DNA from: a virus
Lineage: Duplodnaviria > Caudoviricetes
Virus record (IMG/VR): IMGVR_UViG_3300039306_000019
Span: 1 to 33,063 of that record
Length of the DNA: 33,063 nt
Reading direction: 5' to 3' (one strand)
This document shows positions 1 to 32,658 of this stretch, piece after piece. The position numbers and the translations under genes were made by a program. The first letter of the stretch is position 1. Each line of letters starts with the position of its first letter. A model generated the notes under the pieces. The model made no database searches. It was not told the origin of the DNA and worked only from the letters and a program-made list of their open reading frames with translations.

Positions 1-1272
1 ATGATAAGAAGCTATTATCAACTGATGAAAAACACCCAGCAAGGGGCGGTTATTGGCCTGATCTTAGAAACCAGGCAACCGAAAAAGGACGGCACATGTC
101 CGGTGAAAATACGAGCCACCTTTGACCGTAAGCAGCGCTACTACAACGCCGGTATGGATCTTACGCCTGATGACTGGGAGAAGGTCATGTCAATCAACCC
201 ACGAGGCAAATACAAAGACCTTCGTATTATGCTGGATACAGCTTATGCCGATGCTGATCGCATTGCCAAAGATTTGAAGGGCCGGTTCAGCTTTGAAAGG
301 TTTTCGTCCCTGCTGTTTGGTCCTTCACGTGATGAAAGCAATTTCTACGCACTGTTTGAAAGCTACGTGCAAAAGCTGCAGACTGAAGGAAGAGCAACAA
401 CGGCATCCAGTTACAATTGTGCATTGACTTCGTTTAAACGGTTTAGGCCTTCTCTGAACTTAGCTGAGATCACGCCTGATTTGCTTAGTGAGTATGAGAA
501 ATGGATGACTACATCCGGAAACTCAAAAACCACTACCGGCATTTATACCCGCAGTCTTCGTACGGTACTAAACTTGGCTGTTGATAAGGGATTGATTAAA
601 CAGTCGGATTATCCCTTTGGGAAAAATAAGTACTCCCCTCCTACTGGTCGTAATGTAAAAAAGGCACTTACGCTTTCGGATGTGCAGCTCATTTATGATT
701 ACGACGCTATTGAAGAAAGCCCGGAAAGCAAAGCCCGGGATCTGTGGTTATTCTCTTATCTGTGTGCCGGCATGAACTTCAAAGATATTGCCCGGCTTAC
801 CTTTCGCAATATCCACAAAGACCGGATTGTATTCTTAAGGGCAAAGACAGAACGCAGCCACCGGGCCCAGCCTCAACCCATCACTATAGTATTGACTGAT
901 GAAACCAGGGATATTATCAAACGATGGGGCAATAAATCAAGGATGCCAGATGATTACGTTTTTCCAGTGTTACGATCTGGAATGACACCACTGCAGGAAA
1001 TGAACACCATCCACCAATTTATCAAAACCTCTAATAAGTATTTATCTCGAATTGGGCAGGCTATCGGGCTTGAAAACCAACTTACGACCTATGTAGCTCG
1101 ACACACCTATGCAACCGTGCTGAAGCGCTCAGGAGCTCCTATAGAGTTCATTTCAGAGAGCCTAGGACACAGCAGCCTAAAGACTACTGAGAACTACTTG
1201 GATAGCTTTGAGGACGCTGCAAAAGCCCAATACAACGAACAATTACTGGCATTTAAGAAGAAAGTAGTATGA
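1..1272 (+). CDS. int: Tyrosine integrase, Bacteroidota type (arm-binding, SAM-like and catalytic domains)
   Basis: N-terminal KKDGTCPVKIR..RY arm domain; catalytic boxes GMNFKD, RAKT, TTYVARHTYA, LGHSSLKTTENY. Start may be the ATG at 25. Confidence 0.93.
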   Translation: MIRSYYQLMKNTQQGAVIGLILETRQPKKDGTCPVKIRATFDRKQRYYNAGMDLTPDDWEKVMSINPRGKYKDLRIMLDTAYADADRIAKDLKGRFSFERFSSLLFGPSRDESNFYALFESYVQKLQTEGRATTASSYNCALTSFKRFRPSLNLAEITPDLLSEYEKWMTTSGNSKTTTGIYTRSLRTVLNLAVDKGLIKQSDYPFGKNKYSPPTGRNVKKALTLSDVQLIYDYDAIEESPESKARDLWLFSYLCAGMNFKDIARLTFRNIHKDRIVFLRAKTERSHRAQPQPITIVLTDETRDIIKRWGNKSRMPDDYVFPVLRSGMTPLQEMNTIHQFIKTSNKYLSRIGQAIGLENQLTTYVARHTYATVLKRSGAPIEFISESLGHSSLKTTENYLDSFEDAAKAQYNEQLLAFKKKVV

Positions 1273-7300: not shown

Positions 7301-7906
7301 ATGAAAAATGATACCCAAATCACTGAGCGATTAGAAGCTTACAACGAAGCCCGGAAATGGTCAGGACCCTTTATGGACCGCAGTGTGGCTGACTCTTACA
7401 TGGAAGTCATCAGGAAGGGAGAACTGTATAAATCAGAGACCTTCCAAAGTCTGAAAGCGGCCCGAAAGGAGTATAACCTCATCAATAGCAAGTTTTCTGA
7501 AAGCAGGCAAGCCGTACAGAAAATCATGGGCCGCATCGATCAGCTCGAATACCAGAAAAAGGAAGCTCAAGGGAGCCGGCAGGTAGATCGGTTCTTTGAC
7601 TTGGAAGCCCAGGAGTCTAAGGCTTGGAGAGAACTAAAAGAAGCCCGGGAGGAGCTGGCCATCTTCACTGAACAGGAGAAAACAGCTGGTGAAACGCTCA
7701 AAGCTCTGGAAGCACAAATGAGAAAAGAGCACCAGGCAATGAAAGCCGCATTGGAGGAGCAGATGACCCCTCACCTGGTAGCCTTGAATGATCTGATGGT
7801 GCAGATTAGATTTTTAGGGCACCAGGTCGCTAACTCTGGTGCTGCCAATGGTGGAGGCGAACTCTTTCGCCCTTACCTAGCTAAGTATCGTCACCTGAAC
7901 GGCTAA
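7301..7906 (+). CDS. Coiled-coil hypothetical protein
   Basis: 201 aa, long E/K/Q/A-rich helical run, in operon. Confidence 0.65.
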   Translation: MKNDTQITERLEAYNEARKWSGPFMDRSVADSYMEVIRKGELYKSETFQSLKAARKEYNLINSKFSESRQAVQKIMGRIDQLEYQKKEAQGSRQVDRFFDLEAQESKAWRELKEAREELAIFTEQEKTAGETLKALEAQMRKEHQAMKAALEEQMTPHLVALNDLMVQIRFLGHQVANSGAANGGGELFRPYLAKYRHLNG

Positions 7907-8343
7907 TGAGAAAGGCAGGAAATCAGGTCCAGTACAGCCGGGTGCATTATTCGGCTGTAGACTCACACTTCAAAGATGAGTGTTTCCGGATGTACTGGCT
8001 TAGCTGTAGGATGTTGGGTCTGGATCCAGATGTAACCCCTATTCCTATCCATTTCATTAAGCTTGACCCGGACAATGAGAAACCTTTCTATACCGATTTT
8101 GAAGAAGTCAAGGGAGTTGCATTTGGCCTGTCTTATAAGATTTACATCAGTACGGATTATCCGCTGGAAGATGCCCTTTTCACAGTTGCCCACGAAATGA
8201 GACACATACACCAATATGAGAAGTATGGCTTTCGGGTAGGCTATCAAAAAGAGCTGTCTTCCATCCTGGAAAGCGACGCGGATGAGTTTGCCACCAAAGC
8301 CTGCCGCAAGTTTCAACACCAAAATATGATTTTACATTTATGA
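7906..8343 (+). CDS. Zincin-like HExxH metallopeptidase
   Basis: TVAHEMRHIHQ with downstream ESDADEFA. Confidence 0.72.
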   Translation: MRKAGNQVQYSRVHYSAVDSHFKDECFRMYWLSCRMLGLDPDVTPIPIHFIKLDPDNEKPFYTDFEEVKGVAFGLSYKIYISTDYPLEDALFTVAHEMRHIHQYEKYGFRVGYQKELSSILESDADEFATKACRKFQHQNMILHL

Positions 8344-9029
8344 GCTATCAAACTAAACAATGCTCCCTGGCAGTAAAGGATCTTGATACCAGGGGCCGCA
8401 CCGTAGTTATTTACGTCTCAGCCTTTGGCAATAAAGACTCCGACGGGGATATCATTCTGCCGGGTGCTTTCAAAAAGACGATTGCAGAGAACGGTCCAAA
8501 GTCCTACCAACCCCGCATCAAACACCTGATGCAGCATAAGCACGACCGCCTGATTGGTAAGCCCCTGGAGATGGTGGAGGACAGCAGAGGCCTGCTGGTA
8601 ACTTCACTACTGGCTGACACTACAGAAGGAAGGGATGCGCTGAAACTCTATGAAATGGACTTGCTGGAGCACTCCATTGGCTACCAGGTACCCTCTAGCG
8701 GCCAGAAAAGAGTAGGTGATGCCAATCACATATCTGAAATCTATTTGCGTGAATACTCCTCCGTCAGCTGGGGAGCCAACTCCTCCACGCCCCTAGTGGG
8801 CATTAAATCCTTATCGAAGCCGGATCAACTGGCAGTATTACAATCCCGGGCAAACCGGTTGAGTGAAGCCTGCAACAAAGGCAGTTTCACTGATGAGACT
8901 AGCCAGCTTCTGGAAATGAACCTTAAACAAGTCAAGCAGGAATACCAGCGGCTAACAGATCCGGAATACGAAGAGAAGGAGTTGATTAAATGGCTCCGGG
9001 AACTCCGGTGGTCTTTGGAAAATCATTAA
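8340..9029 (+). CDS. HK97-family prohead (maturation) protease
   Basis: SAFGNKDSDGDII.PGAF, H...LIGK, SIGY and EYSSVSWGAN motifs; catalytic His and Ser appear intact. Confidence 0.92.
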   Translation: MSYQTKQCSLAVKDLDTRGRTVVIYVSAFGNKDSDGDIILPGAFKKTIAENGPKSYQPRIKHLMQHKHDRLIGKPLEMVEDSRGLLVTSLLADTTEGRDALKLYEMDLLEHSIGYQVPSSGQKRVGDANHISEIYLREYSSVSWGANSSTPLVGIKSLSKPDQLAVLQSRANRLSEACNKGSFTDETSQLLEMNLKQVKQEYQRLTDPEYEEKELIKWLRELRWSLENH

Positions 9030-9053
9030 TCTACCTTTTAAACAGTAAAGAGA

Positions 9054-11321
9054 ATGACTATTGAAGAGCTTAGTGTTGCCATAGGGGCCAACCTTACCAG
9101 TTTGGATAAGGGCTTAAAGGATGCCAATCGAAAGTTGGATTCCTTTTCAAAAGATGTAGAGAAAAACAACCGGCAGATGGAAACCTCTTTTACTAAGGTG
9201 GGGACTGTACTAAGTGCCGCGTTTGCTGTCGATATGGTAGATCGTTTTGGCGGGGCCATGATCGGATTAGGCGGGGAGGTAGTAAATACCTACGGAAAGT
9301 TTGAGAAGCTGCAGTCCCTTCTCTCGAATACATTCCAGAGTAAGACTTTAGGAGCCGTAGCGATTGCACAGCTGCAGACAGCGGCAAAAGATCTGCCTGG
9401 TAGTCTGGAAGACGCAACCACTGCATTTTTGAAATTGCAGAATTCTGGCGTGAATCCAACGATAACAGAAATGCGGGCCTTTGCCGATGTGTCGGCTAAT
9501 GCTGGCAAGGGTCTGGACATCTTTGCAGAGGCGGTAAACGATGCTACAAGGGGGGAATTTGAGCGACTAAAAGAGTTCTTCATTGATGCTTCAGTCAAGG
9601 GTGACAAGGTAGCCTTTACCTTCAAAGGTATCACTACCGAAGTAGACAAGAACGACAAAGCAATTAAGGATTACCTGGTTAGCCTTGGCAAGGTAGATGG
9701 GGTAATGGGTGCTGCTGGTGTGCAGATGGATACCGTAAGCGGCAAGCTGTCCAACATGACCGATAGTTGGGATCGTTTGTTTACTAACTTAGGTAAACAG
9801 AACTCAGGCGTTATTGCCGGTACGCTGGACCTAATGATTGATAAGCTGGATGCCGTAGCCAATGCTTTGGTATCAGTTGAAGACAGGGGCCTAGCAAATG
9901 CAGCTTCAGCCATCAAAGCACAGTTTGACAGCATACAGGGTGATTTTGAACGAGCAGCGAAGACAGCAAAGGAAAAAGGCGAAGATATACAGACTGCGCT
10001 AGCAGGTTTGGCAAAGCAAAATAAAGACTACTTCTCGCCGAAACTGGCTGAAGCACAGCAAAAGCTTAACGCGTACCTAGATGAAGAGGGGTCTAAATTA
10101 GACCAGCTTTCGCGCAACCTGCGTACTGCCACTGAAGAGCAAAAGAACTATGATGCCACAGTTGCCCGCCTTTCCGGCGATGTGCAGTTATATCAAAGTA
10201 TTCTCAATGAACTTCCCACCTTGCAGGATAAGGCAACAAAGGCTGTTCAGGGAACGACTGCGGCGATGGGTGGGCTGATTGATCAACTCGAAAAGCGAAT
10301 TAAAGCACAAAAGGCAGTTGTTGACAGTGCAACTAGTGAGGCGGCAATTGCTAGTGGTAATGCAGCCCTGAAAAACTTAGAAGATCAGCTAGAGGCATAC
10401 CGAAAGCTAGGCACACAGAACAGCTTGGAGGTGGTAACCGATAAGCTGGAAAAGTATTACGAAGTACTAGCCAACCCGGACGCCTCCGAAAAGTCGATTA
10501 ATAATACCATCAAGCGTATCAGTATCTTCGAGCGTGAAAAGGAGATGCTTGAGTCGCTTATTGATGCTACATTACGGGCAGCTAAAGGGTATCAGCAAAC
10601 AGTTGAAGAGATTTCTACGACCAGGCCTAGTATCTATACCGGACAAGAAAGCGCGGGATCTGGTACACCTATCAGCCTAATTGATCGCATTAGCTCACAG
10701 AAGGAAATAACCCCCGAAACAAGAAAGCTATCCCCGGACGAGTTTGCCGAAGAATACCAAAGAGCTGGCGGGGCTGTAGTGGAAGTAAACTCGTTAATCG
10801 CGGGATCATTGGCTGGATTGATTTCTACCTCCGCTCAGGCATTTGGTGAATTAGCCATGGGAGTGGGATCAATTGAGAATGTGTTTTCTATGCTGCTTGG
10901 TCAGGTTGCCAGCTTTGTTAAGTCATTTGGGGAGGCAATGATTCAATCTGGTACTGCGGCCTTGATTGCTGAAACTGCGTTGTTCGTCAATCCGGGGATT
11001 GCAATTGCGGCAGGTGCGGCCCTGGTTGCCTTTGGATCTGCGATGTCTTCGGGCTTAAAATTCGGGTCGGACTCAGGCGGTGGGAAAAAGCAGCGCGGCG
11101 GTGCTATACCTCAGTACGAGCAGGGCACCAATTACGTGCCTTTCAATCAGCTAGCCTTTCTACACAAGGGAGAAGCCGTAGTGCCGGCAAAGTTCAACCC
11201 CGCATCATTTGCAGGGATGGCAAGCAAGGCAATAGAAGTATTCGGGCAGTTCCGGGCAGAGGGTAGAGAAATGGTGGCTACGCTGGAAGCTTACGGTTAT
11301 TCCAATATGCGTACAGGTTGA
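9054..11321 (+). CDS. Tail tape measure protein
   Basis: N-terminal LSVAIGA; tape-measure core AVNDATRGEFERLKEF; Ala/Gly-rich helical body; C-terminal GTNYVP..LAFLHKGEAVVP. Confidence 0.85.
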   Translation: MTIEELSVAIGANLTSLDKGLKDANRKLDSFSKDVEKNNRQMETSFTKVGTVLSAAFAVDMVDRFGGAMIGLGGEVVNTYGKFEKLQSLLSNTFQSKTLGAVAIAQLQTAAKDLPGSLEDATTAFLKLQNSGVNPTITEMRAFADVSANAGKGLDIFAEAVNDATRGEFERLKEFFIDASVKGDKVAFTFKGITTEVDKNDKAIKDYLVSLGKVDGVMGAAGVQMDTVSGKLSNMTDSWDRLFTNLGKQNSGVIAGTLDLMIDKLDAVANALVSVEDRGLANAASAIKAQFDSIQGDFERAAKTAKEKGEDIQTALAGLAKQNKDYFSPKLAEAQQKLNAYLDEEGSKLDQLSRNLRTATEEQKNYDATVARLSGDVQLYQSILNELPTLQDKATKAVQGTTAAMGGLIDQLEKRIKAQKAVVDSATSEAAIASGNAALKNLEDQLEAYRKLGTQNSLEVVTDKLEKYYEVLANPDASEKSINNTIKRISIFEREKEMLESLIDATLRAAKGYQQTVEEISTTRPSIYTGQESAGSGTPISLIDRISSQKEITPETRKLSPDEFAEEYQRAGGAVVEVNSLIAGSLAGLISTSAQAFGELAMGVGSIENVFSMLLGQVASFVKSFGEAMIQSGTAALIAETALFVNPGIAIAAGAALVAFGSAMSSGLKFGSDSGGGKKQRGGAIPQYEQGTNYVPFNQLAFLHKGEAVVPAKFNPASFAGMASKAIEVFGQFRAEGREMVATLEAYGYSNMRTG

Positions 11322-11341
11322 TAGATGTGACATCAATTACC

Positions 11342-11379
11342 TTACAAACTCCCTTACTGATGAGTGAGGGAGTTTGTAA
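11342..11379 (+). terminator. Hairpin terminator after the late-type operon
   Basis: TTACAAACTCCCT...AGGGAGTTTGTAA 13-bp inverted repeat. Confidence 0.7.
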
Positions 11380-11480
11380 TTTACTTAAGAAAACACCAAG
11401 GGAACTTATAAGAGAGAACATTGTTTTGGATATTTTTCTTTTATCAATATATTTGTGAGGTAACCTGTACCAGACAAGAA

Positions 11481-11879
11481 ATGGAAATAGAGTTTTTTAA
11501 AGCTAGCGAATTAGATAGCAACATTAAGGCCACCATTCATTACAATGGTAAGCTTGGTTTCAATCGAAATGCAGAGAAAAAACTAAACTTGGAAAATGCA
11601 AAGTCTATCTTAATTGGTAAGGGAAGTGATTACGAAAAAGAAAAAATACTGTATCTCATAGCTCAGGAGGAAATAGATCCAGATGGTTTTGCCGTATTGA
11701 AGTCAGGGGATTACTACTATGCAAACACAAAGAGCCTATTTGATAAACTAGAGGAGGATTATGAAAAATATAAAGTAATCTATAATATCACAGAAACTAC
11801 CTATAACGGTAAAACGATCTTTAAACTAAAACGTAGAGTCATAGAGCGAAAGAAAGGCGAAGAAAGTATTGAAGAATAA
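11481..11879 (+). CDS. AT-rich cargo hypothetical protein
   Basis: ATG at 11481 follows a TATATTTG promoter box at 11448-11455. Confidence 0.65.
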   Translation: MEIEFFKASELDSNIKATIHYNGKLGFNRNAEKKLNLENAKSILIGKGSDYEKEKILYLIAQEEIDPDGFAVLKSGDYYYANTKSLFDKLEEDYEKYKVIYNITETTYNGKTIFKLKRRVIERKKGEESIEE

Positions 11880-11881
11880 AA

Positions 11882-11921
11882 AACGGACAGTGGAGGTTGG
11901 CAGACCTGTCCATTGTCCGTT
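11882..11921 (+). terminator. Stem-loop between cargo genes
   Basis: AACGGACAGTGG...CCATTGTCCGTT with inner AGGT/ACCT stem. Confidence 0.5.
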
Positions 11922-12091
11922 ATTATGAAATTGATTTCCTTGCGACGGGATCAATAACAAAAAGATGGCTTGATTAGCTCATCACGGCCTCTTATTGTCT
12001 TAACAAATTTAAGAATTTTTAGTAAAAAGTCAAATACAGGACTGCCATTTTATTTAAAAAGTTATAATTCACCTTATTAAAACTATTTAAC

Positions 12092-12424
12092 ATGGCACAA
12101 TTTGAGATTTTTCGTAGTACCATTAATAACCAATACTACTTCCGTTTTAAGGCTAGTAATTATAAGCAAATACTGTCTAGCGAAGGGTACAGCACTAAAG
12201 AAAACTGTAATAGTGGGATTAGATCTGTAAAAGCGATCAGTCCATATGATAGCTCATATCAAAAGATCGATAATTATGGTAATTACAGATTCAATATGAT
12301 AGCAACTAATGGTCAAACTGTTGCTAGAAGTAGTGAAGGGTATTCAGATCGTTATGGCCGAGATAATGCTATCAATGTTGTAAAAGCTGAAGCAGGAAGT
12401 GCTGTAGTGATTGATTTAACTTAA
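12092..12424 (+). CDS. yegP: YegP/DUF1508 family protein (two tandem domains)
   Basis: Duplicated YxFxxxAxNxxxxxxSEGY pattern in 110 aa. Confidence 0.88.
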   Translation: MAQFEIFRSTINNQYYFRFKASNYKQILSSEGYSTKENCNSGIRSVKAISPYDSSYQKIDNYGNYRFNMIATNGQTVARSSEGYSDRYGRDNAINVVKAEAGSAVVIDLT

Positions 12425-12443
12425 AAAGTATAATTTAATATTT

Positions 12444-12473
12444 AAAAGGACGCATATATGTGCGTCCTTTTTT
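12444..12473 (+). terminator. Rho-independent terminator
   Basis: AAAAGGACGCA-loop-TGCGTCCTTTT followed by T run. Confidence 0.75.
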
Positions 12474-12495
12474 TATTTTTATACAAAAATATTCT

Positions 12496-12744
12496 ATGAT
12501 AAAGACTTCAATCATACTAGGAATACAGGATGGGTTTCCCATCTGGTCTCCTTGCGATGGCTTTGCAAAAAATTTAAGTATAGCGAAATGGCTATTCTCG
12601 TTTTGTGGATGGAAAAATGAACAATCAACCTACCCGGAGCTCACTTACCAAATAGCTACTGTAGATTGTTCTGAGGGGGCTGTGTTTTACTTTTATGATC
12701 CTACAAAACTTTACGTTCTTGGCAAATGCATTTTCCTAAACTAG
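12496..12744 (+). CDS. Small hypothetical protein
   Basis: ATG at 12496 lies after the terminator; no recognised motif. Confidence 0.4.
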   Translation: MIKTSIILGIQDGFPIWSPCDGFAKNLSIAKWLFSFCGWKNEQSTYPELTYQIATVDCSEGAVFYFYDPTKLYVLGKCIFLN

Positions 12745-12758
12745 CTATTAAGTTGAGA

Positions 12759-12830
12759 ACATCCCCTCAAATTTGAGGGGATGTCTCCAAATTTGGATAG
12801 ATGTTTTAGAGGTCAGCTCATTTTTGAGTT
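12759..12830. repeat. Three-unit palindrome array (16-bp units)
   Basis: CCCTCA-AATT-TGAGGG-GATGT, TCTCCA-AATT-TGGATA-GATGT and inverted GGTC-AGCTCA-TTTT-TGAGTT. Confidence 0.8.
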
Positions 12831-12867
12831 CGGACTCATTATCAGCACTTTAGTAATTACTCTGGCA

Positions 12868-13104
12868 TCACAGTATTTTCTCTGTAAGTTTTGCTAGTAC
12901 CTCCTGAGACATATTAATAATGACAGGTCTTCCAGTGGCTTCATCGGTAAAGCTAAACATCAAGTGCCCTTGGATCTCTTTCAATTCTAATTCATCTGCA
13001 CTGGCTGGAGAATAACCCACAATCCCATTGCGATCATTTACTACCATTATATTGAAGTCTGTTGTCATAGTCCTTTTATTTACATAGTTTTTTTCTGTAC
13101 TCAT
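12868..13104 (-). CDS. Small hypothetical protein
   Basis: 78 aa, overlaps the 3' end of the HTH gene. Confidence 0.55.
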   Translation of the reverse strand: MSTEKNYVNKRTMTTDFNIMVVNDRNGIVGYSPASADELELKEIQGHLMFSFTDEATGRPVIINMSQEVLAKLTEKIL

Positions 13105-13300
13105 CCAAAAGCTTTTCTATGCCCTTTTCGATAGCCTCCACGTTCGTTTCTGTTACATACCGCTCATCTTTGCCTCCTAGCACCCGGGAAACAGTTACTC
13201 GATTACGCTCGGAATAATCCGCTATTTTTTGCTGATCAAGGTTGAACTCTTCAATTGTTTCACGAATCTTAACCAATCTGGTTAGTAGCCCTGTTTCCAT
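13076..13300 (-). CDS. Cro/CI-like HTH regulator
   Basis: LDQQKIADYSERNRVTVSRVLGG HTH; divergent from 13461. Confidence 0.72.
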   Translation of the reverse strand: METGLLTRLVKIRETIEEFNLDQQKIADYSERNRVTVSRVLGGKDERYVTETNVEAIEKGIEKLLDEYRKKLCK

Positions 13301-13325
13301 ATCGTTCTTTATTACAGAGTAAATA

Positions 13326-13459
13326 TACTACAAAAAGTTTTTACTACAAAATTGTAAATATTATTATGCTAAATGTTTGTAGTATCAAAATAATGTAGTA
13401 CGTTTGTGGTGTGCAGCAAGCACTCTTTTTTTGCACCACCATATCAAAAAAATGTAGTA
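13326..13459. promoter_or_regulatory. Divergent promoter with TACTACA boxes
   Basis: TACTACA at 13326 and 13342; TGTAGTA at 13378, 13394 and 13453; TACGTTTG promoter box at 13399-13406. Confidence 0.7.
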
Positions 13460-13460
13460 T

Positions 13461-13802
13461 ATGAAAACTCAAAGACAACGCGTCACTATCTGGGCCTGGA
13501 ACTTTGCCCGCCAAAACAATTACAACTGGTCAACAGCAATGAAGGCAGCTTGGAAGGAAATAAAGCTTCGGGACCTGCACACGGCACTCGCTCACAAAAC
13601 CGTCCGAGTAACCTTTATGAAAATCAATGGTGAAATAACTACCCGGGAGGCCACACGAAGCCGTAAGCTGATCCCCGCACAGTTCGCACCCAAAGGACAA
13701 GGTGGATACAGTCACGACAAGGTAGTAACCTTCTTTAGCCTCACTGACGGTCAATACAGATCCTTCAGGTCAGATAACCTTATCAGCTTCCAGGTGGCAT
13801 AA
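13461..13802 (+). CDS. SH3/Sm-like beta-barrel protein (WYL_2/DUF2693-like)
   Basis: VTFMKINGEITTREAT...TFFSLTDGQYRSFR fits the FxKxxG...W/YRSFR pattern. Confidence 0.75.
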   Translation: MKTQRQRVTIWAWNFARQNNYNWSTAMKAAWKEIKLRDLHTALAHKTVRVTFMKINGEITTREATRSRKLIPAQFAPKGQGGYSHDKVVTFFSLTDGQYRSFRSDNLISFQVA

Positions 13803-13821
13803 TTTTAAACAGCAAAATATT

Positions 13822-14205
13822 ATGAAAACCTCCATTGAATTCACTCAAAAAGAACTGGATTACTTATCTAATGTAGCAGCCATGCATCAGTTCCAGATCA
13901 ACACTTCAATCTTGAAATGTCACCGTAGGCTGAAAAGTAGCAGGCTCTCCCAAAAAGGCAGAGATCGAATACTCAACAGCATTCAGATTCTTGAAGGAAG
14001 CAGAGATAAGGCACAGCAGTTTCGCGACTTCCTGTCAGAGGCAAAACGAAATTTCTACACTAAGCAGGCCCAATCCTGCAGCGCTGAAGTAGCCTACATT
14101 TCCCAGGTAAATGAGATTCTGGCTGACCAAGGATTGATGCCGGCTCAATACTTCAGCCGGGAAGGAATCAGTCTCAGATTGACCGATAAACACCGCAATA
14201 ATTAA
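13822..14205 (+). CDS. Hypothetical protein
   Basis: 127-aa ORF in operon. Confidence 0.6.
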   Translation: MKTSIEFTQKELDYLSNVAAMHQFQINTSILKCHRRLKSSRLSQKGRDRILNSIQILEGSRDKAQQFRDFLSEAKRNFYTKQAQSCSAEVAYISQVNEILADQGLMPAQYFSREGISLRLTDKHRNN

Positions 14206-14246
14206 AGTTATTCAATCACTAGTTTCGCAACTGTCTGATAATAAAG

Positions 14247-14403
14247 GGCTGAAAAATCAGCCGATGTTTTATCAGGTTGATGTGTCCAAACTTGGGCAGA
14301 TGTTCTAGCAAGGTGATCCCCCCAAAGTTGGGGAGATGTCCTCAAACTTGAGGAGGTGTGCTCAAAAATGAGCCGACCAATGTGCGCAAAATTGCGTCGA
14401 CCT
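14247..14403 (+). repeat. Six-unit palindrome array with variable arms
   Basis: 16-bp units at 14247, 14283, 14319, 14339, 14359 and 14383, each followed by GATGT, GGTGT or GACC. Confidence 0.85.
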
Positions 14404-14442
14404 CCAATACTTTAATTCATTCACTTAATCCTTTCTCACACT

Positions 14443-14745
14443 ATGAAATTCACCAGATCAAATTTTAAAGCCCTTCAAAGGGCTGTGAAGTGTCAACAGA
14501 AAAGACACCGTTTGCTTCTCAAAGAACAATGGCAAGAACAAGCCGACTTCAAAAAGAAGTACGACGCATTGCTGGCAGAATACTTTCAGGTTATGCGCGA
14601 TCGAATAGACTTTATGCAAGAGATAGCAGAAGCTAAGATCTCAGAAATAGACCTCTACATTGATCGTGAAAAGACAAACAGAGAATATCTTAGCCGGGAA
14701 AGCCTGGAAGTTAGGTTTCAAAACTGCAAATACCGCCAAAATTAA
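14443..14745 (+). CDS. 100-aa coiled-coil protein, recombinase partner (copy A)
   Basis: Highly similar to 31027-31329 at the same position. Confidence 0.85.
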   Translation: MKFTRSNFKALQRAVKCQQKRHRLLLKEQWQEQADFKKKYDALLAEYFQVMRDRIDFMQEIAEAKISEIDLYIDREKTNREYLSRESLEVRFQNCKYRQN

Positions 14746-14766
14746 TAAACCTTAATTTTTACCTCT

Positions 14767-16071
14767 ATGAAAATGCATGCTAAAACAGTTGTAATTCTTT
14801 TCCGTCTCCGCAGAAACACTATTTATTGCCGAATCACGGTCAATAGTGAACGCGCTAAGAGTGACTTTTCAGTCAATGAACGCGTTCGGGCGCCAGTCAA
14901 TAAAAACCAGATTCAGGATGGAGAATGGGATTCCAAAAAACAGCAGGTAAAAGGCAACGGAGTCGAAGCTATGCTGATCAATAATAAATTAGAGCAGATC
15001 CGGGCTAAGATCAAAACCTGTGCTACTCACTTTATGGCAGAAGGCCGGCACTATACGGCTGAACTGCTTAAAGACATCTTCCTAGGTAAGTCTGAAATCA
15101 GTTACTCCCTCATTCGCACATCGGAATTGATGCTGGAATACATGAAAAGGCAGCCGGAAGATGAAGTAGCTAAGGGCACACTGAGAGGCTACCACACCCG
15201 GCACAATAATATGGTGAAATATTTAAATCATCGCCGCTATACCCGCTTAAAGCCTGATGAGTTTGCCCCTTCCATTGCCAGGGATTTCCTGTATTACATG
15301 CGAATGGAGCACCAACCCAACGCTAGCCAGGTTCACGCGGCCAAATGTTTAGAGTATATAAAAAGAGTGATTCACTTTGCTATCAATGAAGAGTGGATCC
15401 GACATAATCCACTACAGTCATTTGCTATTAAAAAAGGCAATAGTAAGCCAACTCCCCACCTTTCTGAAGACGACCGCGATCTACTAGAAAGGGCAAATTT
15501 TTCCTCTGAACGACTTCAGCGGGTAAAAGATATCTTTGTTTTTTGCTGCCATACCGGGCTGGGTTTTTCCGATGTATCAAGCTTTCGGGCATCCAAACAT
15601 TTGAATGTGGTAAAGGACCACGTATGGCTGGAGATGAAGAGGATGAAGACAAGCATAAACTTCTACGTTCCTCTTTCTGCCGTGGCTCAAGACATCCTAA
15701 GCCGCTATGGTGGGGAGCAACTACCAGTCATTTCTAATTCAAAAATGAATTGCTACCTGAAAGAAGTAGCGGAAATCTGCGGTATCACAATAAACCTGAC
15801 GGTACGAGTAGCCCGGAGAACTTTTGGAATGATTATGCTCAATGATATGAATTTAGACCTGGAAACTGTGTCGAAAATGTTGGGCCATAGCAGCACCGGG
15901 ATGACTGAAAAGCATTACGCCCAAGTATTGAAGAAAAGAATTGTAAAACGGTTAGTTACTGAAAATGCAGACTTCTACGAGTCTTCCCTTGTTCAGCCTG
16001 CCATAGCGATCCAACCCGCTCCGATGATAGGCTTTCAGCGAGTGAAGCCAGTAACGCTACAGCTGGAATAA
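14767..16071 (+). CDS. Second tyrosine recombinase (copy A), atypical catalytic boxes
   Basis: IYCRITVN arm domain, SAM-like domain, TGLGFSD, RMKT, TVRVARRTFG, LGH...HY. Confidence 0.9.
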   Translation: MKMHAKTVVILFRLRRNTIYCRITVNSERAKSDFSVNERVRAPVNKNQIQDGEWDSKKQQVKGNGVEAMLINNKLEQIRAKIKTCATHFMAEGRHYTAELLKDIFLGKSEISYSLIRTSELMLEYMKRQPEDEVAKGTLRGYHTRHNNMVKYLNHRRYTRLKPDEFAPSIARDFLYYMRMEHQPNASQVHAAKCLEYIKRVIHFAINEEWIRHNPLQSFAIKKGNSKPTPHLSEDDRDLLERANFSSERLQRVKDIFVFCCHTGLGFSDVSSFRASKHLNVVKDHVWLEMKRMKTSINFYVPLSAVAQDILSRYGGEQLPVISNSKMNCYLKEVAEICGITINLTVRVARRTFGMIMLNDMNLDLETVSKMLGHSSTGMTEKHYAQVLKKRIVKRLVTENADFYESSLVQPAIAIQPAPMIGFQRVKPVTLQLE

Positions 16072-16089
16072 AAGGAACGATTGCAAAAG

Positions 16090-16160
16090 AAGTATGATAA
16101 AAAGTATGATAAATAAAAAAGCACTTACAAGTTTTATCTCGCAAGTGCTTGATTTTCAAG
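16090..16160. promoter_or_regulatory. att-flanking sites: tandem 12-bp repeats, hairpin and IHF-like box
   Basis: AAGTATGATAAA twice (16090-16113); AAGCACTT...AAGTGCTT hairpin; WATCARNNNNTTR match on the minus strand near 16142-16154. Confidence 0.6.
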
Positions 16161-16204
16161 TGGGCCCTGATGGGATCGAACCATCGACCCCCTGATTATG
16201 AGTC
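16161..16204 (-). tRNA. 3' fragment of tRNA-Ile2(CAT); att core, not an intact gene
   Basis: Minus strand reads GACTCATAATC-AGGGGGTC-GATGG-TTCGATC-CCATC-AGGGCCC-A (anticodon loop, T arm, acceptor 3' strand); no D arm or 5' acceptor strand. GACTCATAATC context favours Ile2 over Met. Confidence 0.85.
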
Positions 16205-16331
16205 CGAAGTATATGAGTATTATTTGTTTATTGTTACTTACTAACATATACTTAAAATGCTGATATAAAGTATATTATTATACTACCGATTATAATTACT
16301 CTATTGTTTATTTATCGATGTTTATTATTTT

Positions 16332-16355: not shown

Positions 16356-17630
16356 ATGAACGAACCCACCCCGAAAGCGAAAAGAATAAGAGCTACCGCT
16401 GCGCTTACCCTTCGCACTGAAATCACTAAAGCCGGCGGCACTCATCCAGTCAGACTTCGAATCACATTCTTACGGCAACGCAAATACTACGGCATTGGCA
16501 TTGATATAACCCTTGAGCTATTTACTGAAACCCAGGACAAGCACAAGAAAAGTCAGAAGGTAGTGGATGCCCGTCAGCGGCTGGACTCCTTCTTGAGTAA
16601 AGCGGTAAGCATTATCAATAAGTTAGATGAGGAGGAGTTCACTTTTGAGAAGTTTGAACAGCGCTTCTTTCAAAACGATTTGGAAGCCCAGCGTAACAAG
16701 TCACTGCAGACAGATCTGCACCATCATTTTGAAACCTACGTAGCCTCATTAAAAGCCGAAGGACGCGCCGCTACTGCTCAATCTTATTATTCGGCTGCCA
16801 GTTCTTTTAAAGCGTTCCGGAGTGACTTGAAGCTTGATCAGATCACTCCGGACCTGCTGGCTAAATACGAGAAATGGATGCTTAACAATGGAAGCAGTAT
16901 ATCCACTGTCGGTATTTACGCCCGGTCACTTCGTACGATCATCAACCAGGTTAAGTCCAAAGGATTGATTAAAGATACTCAGTATCCCTTCGGCCGAGGC
17001 AAATACATTATACCAGCCAGCCGGAACGTGAAGAAGGCTTTATCACTGGCAGAAATCAAACTGATTTTCCAGTACGAGGCCATCCCCCTTTCACCTGAAG
17101 ATAAAGCCCGGGATTTTTGGGTGTTCAGCTACCTTACCAATGGGCTGAACATTAAAGACATTGTTAGGCTGAAATGGAAGAACATTGACGGGGATAAACT
17201 ATCTTTTATCAGAGCTAAAACAGCCCGTAGTAGTAAGGCCAATCAACGGGCTATCTCTGCTGTCTTGACAGATCCGGCAAAGGAAATCATTGCAAAGTGG
17301 GGATCTCAGGACCGGCGGCCGGATTCCTACATATTCGAAGTTTTACAGACAGGGATTACGCCACTACGAGAACGGGAATTGGTGCAGAACTTTACCAAGA
17401 TCGTAAACAAGTGGATGCGGCGCGTTGCGGCCGCTGTAGGCATCGATAAGCCTGTTACTAGCTACTTTGCCCGGCATTCGTACGCCACCGTCCTGAAGCG
17501 GTCTGGAGCCCCTATGGAGTACATCTCCGAAAGCTTAGGACATAAGGACCTCCGCACCACTGAGAGTTACTTGGATAGCTTTGAGGATGACGTGAAGAAG
17601 CAGTATTCCAATGCGCTACTGAATTTTTGA
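16356..17630 (+). CDS. int: Tyrosine integrase, homolog of 1-1272
   Basis: GLNIKD, RAKT, TSYFARHSYA, LGHKDLRTTESY; shares ATVLKRSGAP.E.ISESLGH and YLDSFED with int1. Confidence 0.93.
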   Translation: MNEPTPKAKRIRATAALTLRTEITKAGGTHPVRLRITFLRQRKYYGIGIDITLELFTETQDKHKKSQKVVDARQRLDSFLSKAVSIINKLDEEEFTFEKFEQRFFQNDLEAQRNKSLQTDLHHHFETYVASLKAEGRAATAQSYYSAASSFKAFRSDLKLDQITPDLLAKYEKWMLNNGSSISTVGIYARSLRTIINQVKSKGLIKDTQYPFGRGKYIIPASRNVKKALSLAEIKLIFQYEAIPLSPEDKARDFWVFSYLTNGLNIKDIVRLKWKNIDGDKLSFIRAKTARSSKANQRAISAVLTDPAKEIIAKWGSQDRRPDSYIFEVLQTGITPLRERELVQNFTKIVNKWMRRVAAAVGIDKPVTSYFARHSYATVLKRSGAPMEYISESLGHKDLRTTESYLDSFEDDVKKQYSNALLNF

Positions 17631-17722: not shown

Positions 17723-18793
17723 TCAGACAAGAATTTTAAATTTAGCACGCCCAGGCTCTTTGCCTAATAAGAAGCGGTCATAATCAGCATAGCTGATCCC
17801 GATAATATCAGATAGTTCGGATCGAGAATAATTCAATTGATTTAAATAAGTATTCAACATTTGGGAAAGTATTTGCGGTTGGTCAATTTCAACTGGGCTT
17901 TTTTCAGTTTTTCTTTCACCAAGTCGACTAAGTTCTATCATCATGTTGGTGTACTTTGTCTTGTCGATATATTTTAGATCAAATGCCCGTTTTATCAAAG
18001 ATGATTTTGATACTTTCCAAAACTGCTTAAGATCTCCAAGAACACTAAATCTGAGGTGTATAAGATCTCTCCGAATATCCATTTCTGGCATCAGGAACTC
18101 AGAAGCAAATGCATTTGCTTCTGATTCAGTATCTCTATCCGGATCAAGAATAGGATAATACGGAATATGCATGATGTTGTGACCTAATTCATGTGCGATG
18201 GTGAAGCGCTTACGGTCATTAGGAATATCGTAATTTATTACTATAATGATTTGCCCGGTGTCAGTGATTACGGTTGTGCCATCAAATTTGTCAGGGGCAT
18301 CTTTCATGAAGTATATCATTATGCCATGCCTCTCAAGTGTATTTACAAGCTTGTCAATAGGGCCTTTTGGCAGTGACAACAGGAACCTAATCTTTCTTGC
18401 AATTTCAATAGGGGTATTATTTCCTGCCACTTCGATTGTTGGAATATCGAAATCAGGAACATCAACGTCTTTTAAAAGCCCCTCCATCCAAAGCCTAATT
18501 AAGTCAAAATTTGCCTCAAGTTTTATTTGTTGTTTTCTTGGCATTGTGACCCGCTTACGATAATAGTATTCAGCTTGTGGTTTGATAGGGGTTGGTAAGC
18601 TAAAATAGCTTAGAGGGAAGTTTAGTTCGCTGGCAATATTGACGATAGTCTCATACGGAATGGATAATAAACCCTTCTCCATCCTAGAATAATTGCCCTG
18701 GCTTAAATTGGAGATTTTACTAACCAATTCCTCCTGTGTAAGCCCTCTCGCTTCTCTAGCAATAGGTAACATTTGGAAATTGACCTCTTTCAT
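17723..18793 (-). CDS. XRE-HTH fused to ImmA/IrrE (DUF955) metallopeptidase
   Basis: AREARGLTQEEL...SRMEKG HTH; RKRFTIAHELGH; ESEANAFASEFLMP. Confidence 0.93.
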   Translation of the reverse strand: MKEVNFQMLPIAREARGLTQEELVSKISNLSQGNYSRMEKGLLSIPYETIVNIASELNFPLSYFSLPTPIKPQAEYYYRKRVTMPRKQQIKLEANFDLIRLWMEGLLKDVDVPDFDIPTIEVAGNNTPIEIARKIRFLLSLPKGPIDKLVNTLERHGIMIYFMKDAPDKFDGTTVITDTGQIIIVINYDIPNDRKRFTIAHELGHNIMHIPYYPILDPDRDTESEANAFASEFLMPEMDIRRDLIHLRFSVLGDLKQFWKVSKSSLIKRAFDLKYIDKTKYTNMMIELSRLGERKTEKSPVEIDQPQILSQMLNTYLNQLNYSRSELSDIIGISYADYDRFLLGKEPGRAKFKILV

Positions 18794-18861
18794 TGAATGA
18801 ATATAGTTTAAAGGTAGTTGGTGGAAGTATTGTTACTTCCACCAGATAATAAGTTGCCACC

Positions 18862-19503
18862 CTAACTTGACGAATTTTGCTGATCATCAACCGACTTTTT
18901 AACCTTTGGTTTAACCAGCAAAGGCACATCAACGATAGGGGTTTGAGGGAAAATCGGCAATTGAGAAATTCCACTCTCAAAATCTCGCAGGTCGGTAACC
19001 CAGATCCTTTTACCTTTGGATATGTAAACCGCACAGAGATTGATAATTTCCTCCCAGGATCTGTTTGGCCTATAACCAACAAATATTTCAGGGAGTTTTG
19101 TAAACAAAGAGTGTTGTTCTAGGATTCTCCGCGACCTGCCTGTTGCCACATTCATTGGCATCAATTCGTCATCCAACTTCTTGAAATAAATAATGCATGA
19201 CCCCTCCTTTAAAAACCAGAAGCGCTGATCACTATCTTCTTTCATTTCGTTTGGAAATCGTTCGAAGAGCAATCCCTTAATGTTTTCATTCATACGGTTT
19301 GCTTTTGAATTACGGTTTTGGTACGTACGAGGCTTTTTTCTAATATCGTCCCACATCATTTCAAAAGCGATTTGCTGAATTTCAGCAAAAACAGGAAGCT
19401 GATTTGCCATTACTTGCTCAAAAACTTCTTGAGCTGACGGCTCCAAATTGTAGCTTGGATTCTTGCCATCTTCGTGATTTTGTTCTAAATTTGCGTTCAA
19501 CAT
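18862..19503 (-). CDS. Hypothetical partner of the ImmA/IrrE protein (candidate toxin)
   Basis: 213 aa, co-oriented directly upstream; TAGCTTTG promoter box on the minus strand at 19566-19573. Confidence 0.65.
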   Translation of the reverse strand: MLNANLEQNHEDGKNPSYNLEPSAQEVFEQVMANQLPVFAEIQQIAFEMMWDDIRKKPRTYQNRNSKANRMNENIKGLLFERFPNEMKEDSDQRFWFLKEGSCIIYFKKLDDELMPMNVATGRSRRILEQHSLFTKLPEIFVGYRPNRSWEEIINLCAVYISKGKRIWVTDLRDFESGISQLPIFPQTPIVDVPLLVKPKVKKSVDDQQNSSS

Positions 19504-29746: not shown

Positions 29747-30043
29747 TTAATTAGATGACAATGCCTTAATGTAATCTAAGATAGCTTTGAATTCTTGTAG
29801 CTTAGATTGATTGATTGAAAGGTGCACTTCTCTCCCTTGCTTTACACTCTCTAGTAACTCTGCATTAACTAACTGTTTGACGTGGAAGGAAACGGCGGGG
29901 TAAGACAGTTTACTGAGTTGTTGAACCTCTGACATATTCAGACTGCCGCGGTCAATAATTTCCCGAAAAATCCGTAAACGAGTGCGATCACCAAACGCCT
30001 TAGCAGCTTGGGCAATGAAATTAAAGTTATCTGTGGTGTCCAT
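29747..30043 (-). CDS. ArsR/SmtB family regulator
   Basis: AKAFGDRTRLRI...LSYPAVSFHVKQL...KQGRE; ATG at 30043 preferred. Confidence 0.88.
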   Translation of the reverse strand: MDTTDNFNFIAQAAKAFGDRTRLRIFREIIDRGSLNMSEVQQLSKLSYPAVSFHVKQLVNAELLESVKQGREVHLSINQSKLQEFKAILDYIKALSSN

Positions 30044-30096
30044 ATTAATTAGTTTCAACTTTTAGTTTGTGCGCCCTACTAAGATAGTTTTACTAA

Positions 30097-30261
30097 TTAT
30101 GACACGTTCGAACTCTTTTTAACTACGCTATCCTCTATTACCTCCGCTGCAATCACAGCAATAGGCACCTTGGCCTTTAGTTCCTTCTTCTTGGTTTCCT
30201 GAATCTTAACTAGCTCTTCGTGAGCCTCATCTGACACTTCGATAGTGATTTTCTTTGTCAT
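30097..30261 (-). CDS. 54-aa ribbon-helix-helix-like regulator (absent from the ORF track)
   Basis: Manual translation MTKKITIEVSDEAHEELVKIQETKKKELKAKVPIAVIAAEVIEDSVVKKSSNVS; alternating beta strand then two helices; divergent position like the HTH at 13300. Confidence 0.7.
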   Translation of the reverse strand: MTKKITIEVSDEAHEELVKIQETKKKELKAKVPIAVIAAEVIEDSVVKKSSNVS

Positions 30262-30272
30262 AATATATTTTG

Positions 30273-30343
30273 TTGTAAAATTAATTGTAAAATCTATTGC
30301 AGATATAAATTATGTTCGTAAATTTACAACAGAATTTACAACA
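30273..30343. promoter_or_regulatory. Divergent promoter with TTGTAAA boxes
   Basis: TTGTAAAAT at 30273 and 30285; AATTTACAACA at 30321 and 30333. Confidence 0.68.
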
Positions 30344-30358
30344 AAACAAAATAAACTT

Positions 30359-30823
30359 ATGCAAACTCAAGAAGTATTTACCCGTCCCTACACTGAATCA
30401 GCAGTATTCACCCGCACCGTTTCCAACCTCTACAAGTTGGCTACCTCCTTATCTGAAGATCCGGCACAATCATTATTAATGTTCAACTATGAGTTGCAGA
30501 TGCAGCACTTCATGATTGCACATTATTCAAACAGCCAGATAGGGGCCAATACTTCAAGAAAAATGGTTGACTGTATTCTTTATACAATCGCCATGGTAAT
30601 GCAGGAAACTCATCCGATTGCGAAAGTTAACCGCTCCATAATGGATTGTCTTACAGAAGCCTGTACACGGGTATCTGATGGCTATATTGAAGGGTTTGAA
30701 GATGAAGAATTTGCTAGGGAAATCAGGCAGGGAGCGGACCTGGCTAAGTCAATGCACGATAAGGGAAACACCATAGAGCAAACTATATTTCTGACCGAAT
30801 TCCTGTTCTGTTTTCGGGCATAG
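30359..30823 (+). CDS. Hypothetical protein
   Basis: ATG at 30359 (MQTQEVF) downstream of the operator boxes. Confidence 0.65.
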   Translation: MQTQEVFTRPYTESAVFTRTVSNLYKLATSLSEDPAQSLLMFNYELQMQHFMIAHYSNSQIGANTSRKMVDCILYTIAMVMQETHPIAKVNRSIMDCLTEACTRVSDGYIEGFEDEEFAREIRQGADLAKSMHDKGNTIEQTIFLTEFLFCFRA

Positions 30824-30830
30824 TTTTTCA

Positions 30831-30987
30831 ACCTGACATACCGATTCGTGAGGTCAGGTCTGAATATTACTTCAGCCAGCCTCCCGCTGGAGCTGGCGTA
30901 ACCTTTCGTTACGCCAGCCTGACACGAATACTTTTCGTGTCAGGTCAAAAAATCAGCCGATCTATGTACGCAAAATTGCGTCGACCT
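30831..30987 (+). repeat. Palindrome array of element 2
   Basis: Three 27-bp palindromes (30832, 30892, 30918), two short hairpins, then two 16-bp units (30943, 30967). Confidence 0.82.
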
Positions 30988-31026: not shown

Positions 31027-31329
31027 ATGAAATTCACCAGATCAAATTTTAAAGCCCTTCACAGGACAGTGAAGGCACAACAGAAAAGGCATCGTTTGCT
31101 ACTCAAAGAACAATGGCAAGAGCAAGCCGACTTCAAAAAGAAGTACGACGCATTGCTGGAAGAATACTTTCAAGTTATGCGCGATAGAATAGAGTTTATG
31201 GAGGAAATAGCGGAGCAAAAGGTGGCTGAAATAGACCTCTATATTGATCGGGAAAAGACAAACAGAGAATACCTCAGCCGGGAAGGCCTGCAAGCGAGGT
31301 TTCAACATTGCAAATACCGCCAAAACTAA
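31027..31329 (+). CDS. 100-aa coiled-coil protein (copy B)
   Basis: Paralog of 14443-14745. Confidence 0.85.
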   Translation: MKFTRSNFKALHRTVKAQQKRHRLLLKEQWQEQADFKKKYDALLEEYFQVMRDRIEFMEEIAEQKVAEIDLYIDREKTNREYLSREGLQARFQHCKYRQN

Positions 31330-31353: not shown

Positions 31354-32658
31354 ATGAAACTTCAATCCAAAACGGTCGTAGTTCTTTTCCGTCTCCGAAA
31401 AAACACCATTTATTGCCGAATCACTGTCAACGGCGAACGTGCAAAGAGTGACTTTTCCGTCAATGAGCGCGTTCGGGCACCGCTCAATAAAAGCCAAATT
31501 CAGGATGGGGAATGGGATGGAAAAAAACAGCAGGTAAAAGGCAATGGTGTAGAAGCCATGCTGATCAATAATAAGTTAGAGCAGATCCGGGCTAAGATCA
31601 AAACACATGCTACCCACTTTATGGCAGAAGGCCGGCACTACACGGCAGACCTGCTTAGAGATATCTTCCTTGGTAAGGCTGAAATCAGTTACTCTCTCAT
31701 TCGCACATCTGAATTGATGTTGGAATATATGAAAAAGCAACCTGAAGATGAGGTAGCTAAGGGTACACTGAGAGGCTACCACACCCGGCATAATAACATG
31801 GTGAAATATTTAAATCATCGCCGCTATACCCGCTTAAAGCCAGACGAGTTTGCCCCTTCCTTTGCCCGGGATTTCCTTCAGTATATGCGACTGGAGCACC
31901 AGCCCAACGCCAGCCAGGTTCACGCGGCCAAATGTTTGGAGTACATCAAAAGAGTAATTCACTTTGCTATCAATGAAGAATGGATACGACATAACCCACT
32001 ACAGGCGTTCGCCATTAAAAAGTGCAATAGCAAGCCTACTCCCCACCTTTCTGAAGAGGACCGTAATAAACTGGAAAGGGCAAAATTCGCCTCTGAAAGG
32101 CTTCACCGGGTAAAGGATATCTTTGTTTTTTGCTGTCATACCGGACTGAGTTTTGCCGATGTAACAAGCTTTAGGGCATCCCAACATTTGACGGTGGTCA
32201 AGGGCCACGTATGGTTGGAAATGCAACGAATGAAGACCGGCGTAAACTTTTATGTTCCTCTATCTGCCGTGGCTCAAGACATCCTAAGCCGCTACGGTGG
32301 GGAGCAACTACCAGTCATTTCTAATCCAAAAATGAATTCCTACCTGAAAGAGATAGCGGACATTTGCGGTATCACGATAAACCTAACAGTACGAGTAGCC
32401 CGGAAAACTTTTGGAATGGTTATGCTCAACGATATGAATCTGGACCTGGAGACTGTGTCCAAAATGTTGGGCCATACCAGCACCGGGATTACTGAAAAGC
32501 ATTACGCCGAAGTGCTTAAGAAAAGGATTGTAAAACGGTTGGTTACTGAAAATGCAGATTTCTACGAGTCTTCCCTTGTTCAGCCTGCAATAGCAATCAA
32601 ACCCGCTCCGATGCTAGGCTTTCAGAGAGTGCGGCCGATAACGCTGCAGTTAGAGTAA
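31354..32658 (+). CDS. Second tyrosine recombinase (copy B)
   Basis: About 47 of 434 residues differ from copy A by manual count; TGLSFAD, TVRVARKTFG, LGH...HY. Confidence 0.9.
   Translation: MKLQSKTVVVLFRLRKNTIYCRITVNGERAKSDFSVNERVRAPLNKSQIQDGEWDGKKQQVKGNGVEAMLINNKLEQIRAKIKTHATHFMAEGRHYTADLLRDIFLGKAEISYSLIRTSELMLEYMKKQPEDEVAKGTLRGYHTRHNNMVKYLNHRRYTRLKPDEFAPSFARDFLQYMRLEHQPNASQVHAAKCLEYIKRVIHFAINEEWIRHNPLQAFAIKKCNSKPTPHLSEEDRNKLERAKFASERLHRVKDIFVFCCHTGLSFADVTSFRASQHLTVVKGHVWLEMQRMKTGVNFYVPLSAVAQDILSRYGGEQLPVISNPKMNSYLKEIADICGITINLTVRVARKTFGMVMLNDMNLDLETVSKMLGHTSTGITEKHYAEVLKKRIVKRLVTENADFYESSLVQPAIAIKPAPMLGFQRVRPITLQLE

Follow-up and report, generated by a model that had tools for sequence, protein, structure and literature searches.

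Palindrome arrays matching sites inside phage Rha and Bro-N genes precede a recombinase gene pair in two tandem PICI-like satellites

Introduction

What does a run of palindromes do directly ahead of a tyrosine recombinase gene, in an element that already has an integrase beside its attachment site? The question is raised by a 33-kb provirus call in IMG/VR (IMGVR_UViG_3300039306_000019), which we analysed as the entire record of 33,063 nucleotides (hereafter, the window). A reading of the sequence alone had described a module, present twice, of a palindrome array, a 100-aa coiled coil and an atypical tyrosine recombinase, and proposed that it is exchanged and selected as a unit in which the recombinase and its partner act on, build or are controlled by the array.

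Several known systems resemble parts of this layout. Integrons combine attC sites bearing R boxes with gene cassettes, and in shufflons a tyrosine recombinase acts on repeated sites. In lambda (xis-int) and Tn554 (TnpC), an integrase is accompanied by a small accessory protein. PICI-like satellites sense their helper via repressor-inducer pairs, and few kinds of phage regulator are as common as the Rha and Bro-N proteins.

Results

Two tandem satellites, each with its own integrase

Judged from sequence, the window consists of two tandem PICI-like elements from a Bacteroidota host (Table 1), both of which encode an integrase, HTH_17, primase and TerS. A PICI-like assignment fits their gene content (integrase, excisionase-like HTH, primase and packaging gene, with an incomplete virion set) and their small size, both read from elements whose ends lie partly beyond the record limits. 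No major capsid gene was detected among the scanned ORFs of the window, and the record holds no helper phage. In element 1, the integrase gene is followed by HTH_17, BT4734-like, D5 primase, TerS, prohead protease and tape-measure-like genes, the last two within 8340-11321; element 2 encodes a 683-aa virion structural protein within 20503-22554. A phage contig (G024:C106) carries counterparts of the tape-measure-like and of the structural protein, at 38% identity in both cases, and we regard the genes for these two proteins and for the protease as putative captured late genes, with no capsid gene detected alongside them. Also in element 2 (17723-19503), an HTH and IrrE-like peptidase of 356 aa is encoded together with a partner of 213 aa, within whose coding sequence lies an array-unit-like word (19429-19449).

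The tRNA-proximal end of each element has the same layout: a divergent HTH switch, one or two unrelated genes, the palindrome array, the 100-aa gene and the 434-aa recombinase gene. Long AT-rich inverted repeats (13321-13405 and 30261-30353), probably each element's own operators, separate the divergent HTH genes from the rightward operons. The plus-strand gene of the element 2 switch ends 11 bp ahead of array 2.

The tRNA fragment at the junction of the elements matches tRNA-Met(CAT) of genomes G114 and G024 at 44 of 45 bases. G114 carries a 33.8-kb element at this same tRNA gene, whose integrase belongs to the int1/int2 family (34% identity, E 1e-74 to 1e-80) and lies beside the displaced tRNA fragment in the geometry of int2. 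This element also has a second, weakly related recombinase of 305 aa, and no match to the 434-aa protein was found in it.

Table 1 Features of the two elements, in window positions
Feature	Position	Strand	Remarks
Element 1 integrase (int1)	1..1272	+	199/403 aligned residues identical to element 2 integrase
Array 3, three Rha-type palindromes	12763-12831		End of leftward HTH operon of element 1; no recombinase adjacent
Element 1 divergent switch, HTH-like, 74 aa	13076-13300	-	
Element 1 upstream gene, WYL_2, 113 aa	13461-13802		
Element 1 upstream gene, 127 aa	13822-14205		
Array 1, six Rha-type palindromes	14246..14399		18-mers starting at 14246, 14282, 14318, 14338, 14358, 14382
100-aa orphan protein, copy 1	14443..14745	+	
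Recombinase, copy 1, 434 aa	14767..16071	+	IntCTnDOT subgroup; Arm-DNA-bind_5, SAM_5, Phage_integrase
Recombinase C-terminal tail	15982..16068	+	Residues 406-434 (29 residues); low-confidence in model of recombinase alone
12-bp direct repeat	16090-16113		att-flanking region of element 1
Terminator-like hairpin	16119-16150	-	att-flanking region of element 1
tRNA 3' half, CAT anticodon	16160..16204	-	att junction between elements 1 and 2
Element 2 att-adjacent integrase (int2)	16356..17630	+	Family and geometry as in G114 tRNA-Met(CAT) element integrase
Element 2 divergent switch, region	29747..30823	- and +	Winged-HTH, 103 aa (-); unrelated gene, 154-192 aa (+)
Array 2	30835..30983		Bro-N-type 21-mers at 30835, 30895, 30921, then two shared Rha-type units
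Array 2, other hairpins	30857-30878, 30875-30897		Matching neither library
Array 2, shared Rha-type units	30942, 30966		Left arm broken in unit at 30942
100-aa protein, copy 2	31027..31329	+	87% identical to copy 1
Recombinase, copy 2	31354..32658	+	Tailed; 89% identical to copy 1

A shared block under purifying selection

The two modules align over 14364-16062 and 30948-32649 with 87.7% nucleotide identity. The left edge of this block falls in the A-rich middle of the penultimate array unit and its right edge at the recombinase stop, beyond which the two copies diverge; the block thus holds the last two array units, the 100-aa gene and the recombinase gene. Elsewhere, nucleotide similarity between the elements is confined to two short stretches, in terS (83% over ~170 bp) and in the integrases (79% over 108 bp). 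The recombinases share 387 of 434 residues and the small proteins 87 of 100, with dN/dS of 0.11 (95% bootstrap 0.08-0.16) and 0.13 (0.06-0.25), respectively, at dS of ~0.5; both are therefore real, selected genes.

The earlier description of the module thus holds in its main lines: both elements carry it besides their att-adjacent integrase, homology runs from the last two array units to the recombinase stop, the recombinases are about 89% identical, and the upstream genes and array units differ, elements 1 and 2 having different unit sets. The proposal of a selected, modular unit is likewise supported, and the partner appears to travel with the tailed recombinase (see below).

In scans of viral sequences, the sole matching record, together with its re-fetches, was L167, which is identical to window positions 5274-16283, shows no difference in the arrays and may be the same source DNA. 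Array and gene pair together have accordingly been observed directly in this window only, L167 being an identical copy. Just past the second recombinase, an inverted repeat of ~10 bp enclosing ~75 bp was noted by eye (32675-32772).

Array units match palindromes inside regulator genes

At a threshold of six of eight pairs, arrays 1 and 2 contain five hairpins each, a count reached by 0/300 and 5/300 dinucleotide shuffles, respectively; at seven of eight pairs, 6/300 and 4/300 shuffles reached the observed count. The generic hairpin count of array 3 was not significant (44/300 shuffles). Unit centres in array 1 lie 36, 36, 20, 20 and 24 bp apart, and array 3 has the same unit types at a spacing of ~20 bp. 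Array 1 units are mutually identical at 7-15 of 18 positions, the longest word repeated three times is 5 nt, and no constant repeat or recombination core common to them was found. None of the three arrays contains attC sites (RYYYAAC / GTTRRRY ends), and the seven IHF consensus matches of the window all lie away from the arrays. The arrays may conceivably act as structured RNA, given their strong folding z-scores (-5.5 for array 1, -7.4 for array 2), but such scores follow from the palindromes themselves, and no Rfam match was obtained at E 0.1.

Database matches of single units pointed to regulator genes. One array 1 unit occurred at 120 or more viral loci, falling within a Rha gene by profile match in 46 of the 120 listed, and Pfam confirmed Rha in 33 of 34 distinct contexts submitted. 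One array 2 unit had 14 viral loci, two of which were Bro-N genes with matching flanks. Many Rha and Bro-N genes (L415-L474, L475-L554) carry a symmetric palindrome at a fixed codon position, with a sequence that varies between homologs; weakly Bro-N-like genes (~280-300 aa) do so too. Read in the Rha frame, array 1 units 1-3 give GLKNQP, VSKLGQ/LPKFGH and PPKVGE/LPNFGG, and units 4-6 give VLKLEE/LLKFED, VLKNEP and VRKIAS/RRNFAH.

To avoid circularity, we built site libraries by locating the variable codons through the protein alignment and excising the DNA there. Genes for the Rha library were chosen by Pfam (30 loci from 251 Cytophagales genomes), and those for the Bro-N library by Pfam together with a protein motif, the sites used being the 34 of 60 anchored ones with at least five of seven symmetric pairs. 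When the Rha library was compared with the whole window, six of the seven best sites (≥18/23) fell in arrays 1 and 3, the best 23-mer match to a Cytophagales Rha gene being 21/23 at 14318 in array 1. For the Bro-N library, the two best sites in the window (18/21 and 16/21) both fell in array 2, and arrays 1 and 3 held none. Symmetric arm-shuffled libraries reached the observed counts in 0/200 trials, both for Rha in arrays 1 and 3 and for Bro-N in array 2. Over 700 bp upstream, the site libraries found five Rha-type sites at copy 1, and one Rha and two Bro-N sites at copy 2.

Sequence matching thus identifies the array units as palindromes resembling sites inside phage regulator genes, Rha-type in element 1 and, in the upstream part of the array, Bro-N-type in element 2; we consider this identity well supported. 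No Rha or Bro-N gene was found in the window, so any binder of an array would have to come in trans.

Few transcription signals were apparent around the arrays. Ahead of array 1, positions 14220..14228 (+) hold what we take to be a possible, weak Bacteroidota -7 promoter-like word, one mismatch from the consensus, and no counterpart was found ahead of array 2. A perfect match to the same consensus occurs on the opposite, minus strand across the stop codon of each 100-aa gene (14737-14744 and 31321-31328); with 26 matches to the -7-like word across the window, it could be an antisense promoter reading across the 100-aa gene and the array, or chance.

Arrays also occur away from recombinases

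Non-coding arrays of three to seven Rha-type palindromes were found in other proviruses (L254:300-520 and L331, L274, L291, L333, L343/L361), with no recombinase within 2.5 kb in L254, L274, L291, L333 and L343. Whole-record searches placed the only integrase of each record ~8.5 kb (L254), ~2.6 kb (L274), ~10 kb (L291) and ~10.7 kb (L333) from the array, and none was detected in L343, a 4.5-kb fragment. By eye, the L254 array adjoins a terminase-small-subunit-like gene. Conversely, among the 202 of 269 family recombinase loci with sufficient flank, the 700 bp upstream held at most two Rha-type sites, against five at copy 1. With array 3 and these five records lacking a nearby recombinase, arrays evidently do not need one, and the adjacency in our elements could be incidental.

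An IntCTnDOT-type recombinase with a catalytic variant

By its domains (PF17293, PF13102, PF00589) and catalytic positions, the 434-aa protein is classified as an IntCTnDOT-type recombinase with His-II changed to Arg; its model showed fold matches to Tn1549 Int, lambda Int and Xer. Key residues are G266 at Arg-I, R292, K294, R347 at His-II, R350, H374 and Y384. Across 18 aligned homologs, position 266 is G or S and R292 is invariant, and from its position R292 would be the substitute Arg. According to PMC8138268, loss of Arg-I with a substitute Arg downstream is normal for this subgroup. The label 'atypical' thus applies in part: Arg-I loss is ordinary for IntCTnDOT, and only the change of His-II to Arg (R347) appears to be clade-specific, Arg or Lys at this position marking a clade of 13 proteins with 100/100 support. 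As in IntDOT and NBU1 (PMC8138268), the protein has arm-binding, core-binding and catalytic domains, lacks Arg-I with R292 available, and retains K, Arg-II, His-III and Tyr. It differs from the subgroup in the Arg/Lys at His-II, in a 29-residue tail with an orphan partner encoded upstream, and in being encoded alongside a separate att integrase, as the second integrase-like protein of each element.

The only other clade member with readable DNA, P0017, is encoded on phage contig G024:C106. Its gene is flanked by tail genes and by a cI/cro-like pair and lies 207 bp from an attP-like core, 14 bp that repeat the 3' end of the host tRNA-Val. Neither a partner in genome G024 nor an array upstream was found for it. 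Its place at an attP-like core suggests that the catalytic variant would be compatible with ordinary integration. The attP-like copy of the tRNA-Val(TAC) 3' end occupies 36808-36821, between the cI-like gene and the clade integrase; the host tRNA-Val itself lies on C335, followed by a terminator-like hairpin, and the phage may have been assembled in unintegrated form.

Close relatives are scarce. Searching metagenomes and genomes with the clade alignment returned, among the matches listed, only generic family members (26-40% identity). A close clade member was present in one of 401 Cytophagales genomes, and no further one was found among 151 relatives, in 13 and 2 genomes of two small families, or in 301 genomes of one family, where the best match was L385, a tRNA-Lys-adjacent integrase. 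Identity of GenBank phage proteins to the recombinase was at most 29% among the best 15 matches.

A predicted helical partner that appears to co-vary with the recombinase tail

The 100-aa protein has no Pfam family, no Atlas feature match and one marginal PHROG match (E 0.009). It was modelled, as a monomer, with a long helix over residues 5-82 (78 residues) and a short one over 85-99, and its structural look-alikes were generic long helices. The proposed 'coiled coil' reduces to a predicted 78-residue helix and a short helix in a monomer model. With no Pfam match and a predicted long helix, no HTH or winged-helix domain of the Xis/RDF kind was found in it. Six family members are known, with conserved N-terminal and C-terminal motifs and the Gln-Asn end kept in five of the six; none was found in 401 class-level genomes. 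One further candidate, the repetitive P0127 (2694 aa, E 9e-4), was dropped from the family.

The recombinase tail occurs in four of 120 listed homologs, namely the two window copies, P0011 and P0019, and these four are the ones that have, or probably have, a 100-aa partner. Source, contig count and longest contig are the same for P0011 and the partner P0125 (longest contig 16,857 bp) and likewise for P0019 and the partner P0004 (1,976 bp), and from these contig statistics, which are indirect but specific, we infer that each forms a co-located pair. The remaining partner proteins, P0003 and P0126, had no matched recombinase. In this thin sample of two direct and two deduced cases, the orphan helical protein appears to co-vary with the tail, a new association for which physical contact between the two is a plausible reason.

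The tree places the tailed recombinases in more than one lineage (three changes; a single clade was rejected at p-AU 4e-124), and one of them keeps His-II. It follows that tail and partner have been lost more than once or have passed from one recombinase to another. A small, co-conserved gene directly upstream recalls lambda xis-int and Tn554 TnpC, from which this partner differs in its predicted long helix and in having no HTH/Xis or other Pfam match.

Discussion

What, then, is the array for? We tentatively favour, at slightly less than an even chance, the reading that it is a bank of binding sites for helper regulators, through which an accessory recombinase pair is controlled. Rha and Bro-N proteins of a helper phage would occupy the palindromes, and binding between the upstream genes and the pair would change expression of the pair, in the simplest form as a transcriptional road-block while the helper is active; the array may also titrate the phage regulator. 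As an accessory or directionality factor, the 100-aa helix would likely engage the recombinase via the latter's 29-residue tail. Together the two proteins would recombine the DNA of the satellite itself a second time, timed by the helper; the array would not be the substrate, and candidate reactions are re-integration, excision or dimer resolution. Exchange of array units would retune which helpers are sensed. The identity of the units, the differing unit sets, the position before the pair, purifying selection and a separate att integrase in each element support this reading. Both arrays sit at the same place and their last two units lie inside the conserved block, the link between array and recombinase being seen in two copies within one record; no substrate site for the 434-aa recombinase was identified. 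Among the roles first proposed for recombinase and partner, control by the array would remain the best reading.

A bolder version, possible but somewhat unlikely, joins an exchangeable library of regulator sites, a dedicated recombinase and a helical partner of a new kind, docking on the tail, into a retunable helper sensor that triggers a second recombination in Bacteroidota satellites; in its boldest form, the recombinase would also swap units at palindrome centres.

An unlikely alternative is that the arrays are decoys only, sponging up helper Rha and Bro-N proteins on a replicating satellite, with the gene pair an unrelated neighbour at the element's variable end. Array 3, which has no recombinase, fits this, as do the five other viral records, where the only integrase lies 2.6-10.7 kb from the Rha-type array or, in the 4.5-kb fragment, none was detected. 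It does not readily explain why the arrays of both elements hold exactly the same position despite differing upstream units and genes, nor why two units lie within the conserved block.

That the recombinase and its partner build or reshuffle the array at palindrome centres is improbable. In its favour, the single junction between swapped and shared DNA lies in the A-rich centre of a palindrome, the junction unit of array 2 (30942-30959), whose left arm is broken in that copy. The right part of this unit fits array 1 unit 1 (14/18) better than its positional counterpart (12/18). The enzyme, moreover, keeps R292, K294, R350, H374 and Y384 and is under selection. Yet one junction cannot separate site-specific exchange from microhomology, and the L167 array is unchanged, though maybe from the same source DNA. 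Array 1 units share little (7-15 of 18 positions, no three-fold word above 5 nt, no attC R boxes), arrays exist far from any recombinase, and P0017 sits by an attP-like core with no array. Arrays lacking a recombinase and units lacking a constant core make the recombinase probably not the array builder, and the earlier suggestion that it acts on or builds the array is not borne out.

Still less probable is a small independent mobile unit of partner and recombinase, with its own target, that was inserted or swapped and left the array as a captured flank. Sharp homology edges, little other nucleotide similarity between the elements and the scatter of tailed recombinases over the tree would suit it. 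Against it, the repeat list, which is non-exhaustive, shows no terminal repeats or shared flanking core, and a right-hand att arm would have no space, since the homology does not extend past the stop codon.

Least probable is a lambda-like xis-int-att arrangement in which the 434-aa protein simply serves the tRNA site. The element 1 recombinase does end 89 bp from the tRNA fragment, and tRNA-type sites adjoin P0017 as well as the L247 and L385 proteins, which are more distantly related, but the G114 element uses an int1/int2-family integrase at the same tRNA-Met(CAT), and no tRNA core lies in the 405 bp between recombinase copy 2 and the record end. The 434-aa protein is thus probably not the mere tRNA-site integrase that the sequence-only reading had named as one possible refutation, the tRNA-Met site appearing to be served by the other integrase family.

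Taken singly, the parts have known counterparts: the recombinase is of the IntCTnDOT subgroup, the 100-aa gene resembles small accessory genes, the elements are PICI-like satellites, and the array units correspond to Roi/Rha-type gene-internal sites. With integrons and shufflons the elements share a tyrosine recombinase beside an array of hairpin-forming units, and differ in lacking attC R boxes, a constant recombination core and gene-bearing cassettes; unlike a CRISPR-like array, no constant repeat is common to all units. Integrase, HTH_17, primase, TerS, tRNA integration and the undetected major capsid gene are shared with PICI-like satellites, whereas here the helper would be sensed through a bank of DNA sites that its regulators bind, the tRNA-proximal end has an additional recombinase pair, and the host is a bacterium of the Bacteroidota. 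The Rha/Bro-N network of phage DNA-binding proteins is named in PMC10111431. As in HK022 Roi and that network, array units match palindromes at a fixed codon position in Rha/Bro-N genes; here, in contrast, the sites are non-coding, several variants stand in a row with no IHF consensus beside them, and the element carrying them has no Rha or Bro-N gene. In the literature searched, with subscription journals mostly outside its coverage, no paper describes such arrays by its title or the start of its abstract.

Because the array stands ahead of a defined output gene pair, a sensor can be distinguished from a decoy. In the pairing of tail and partner, IntDOT-type recombinases may have a new mode of regulation. 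Few DNA targets are known, to our knowledge, for Rha and Bro-N proteins, and the variable fixed-codon palindromes copied into satellite arrays would be direct candidate operators of these regulators.
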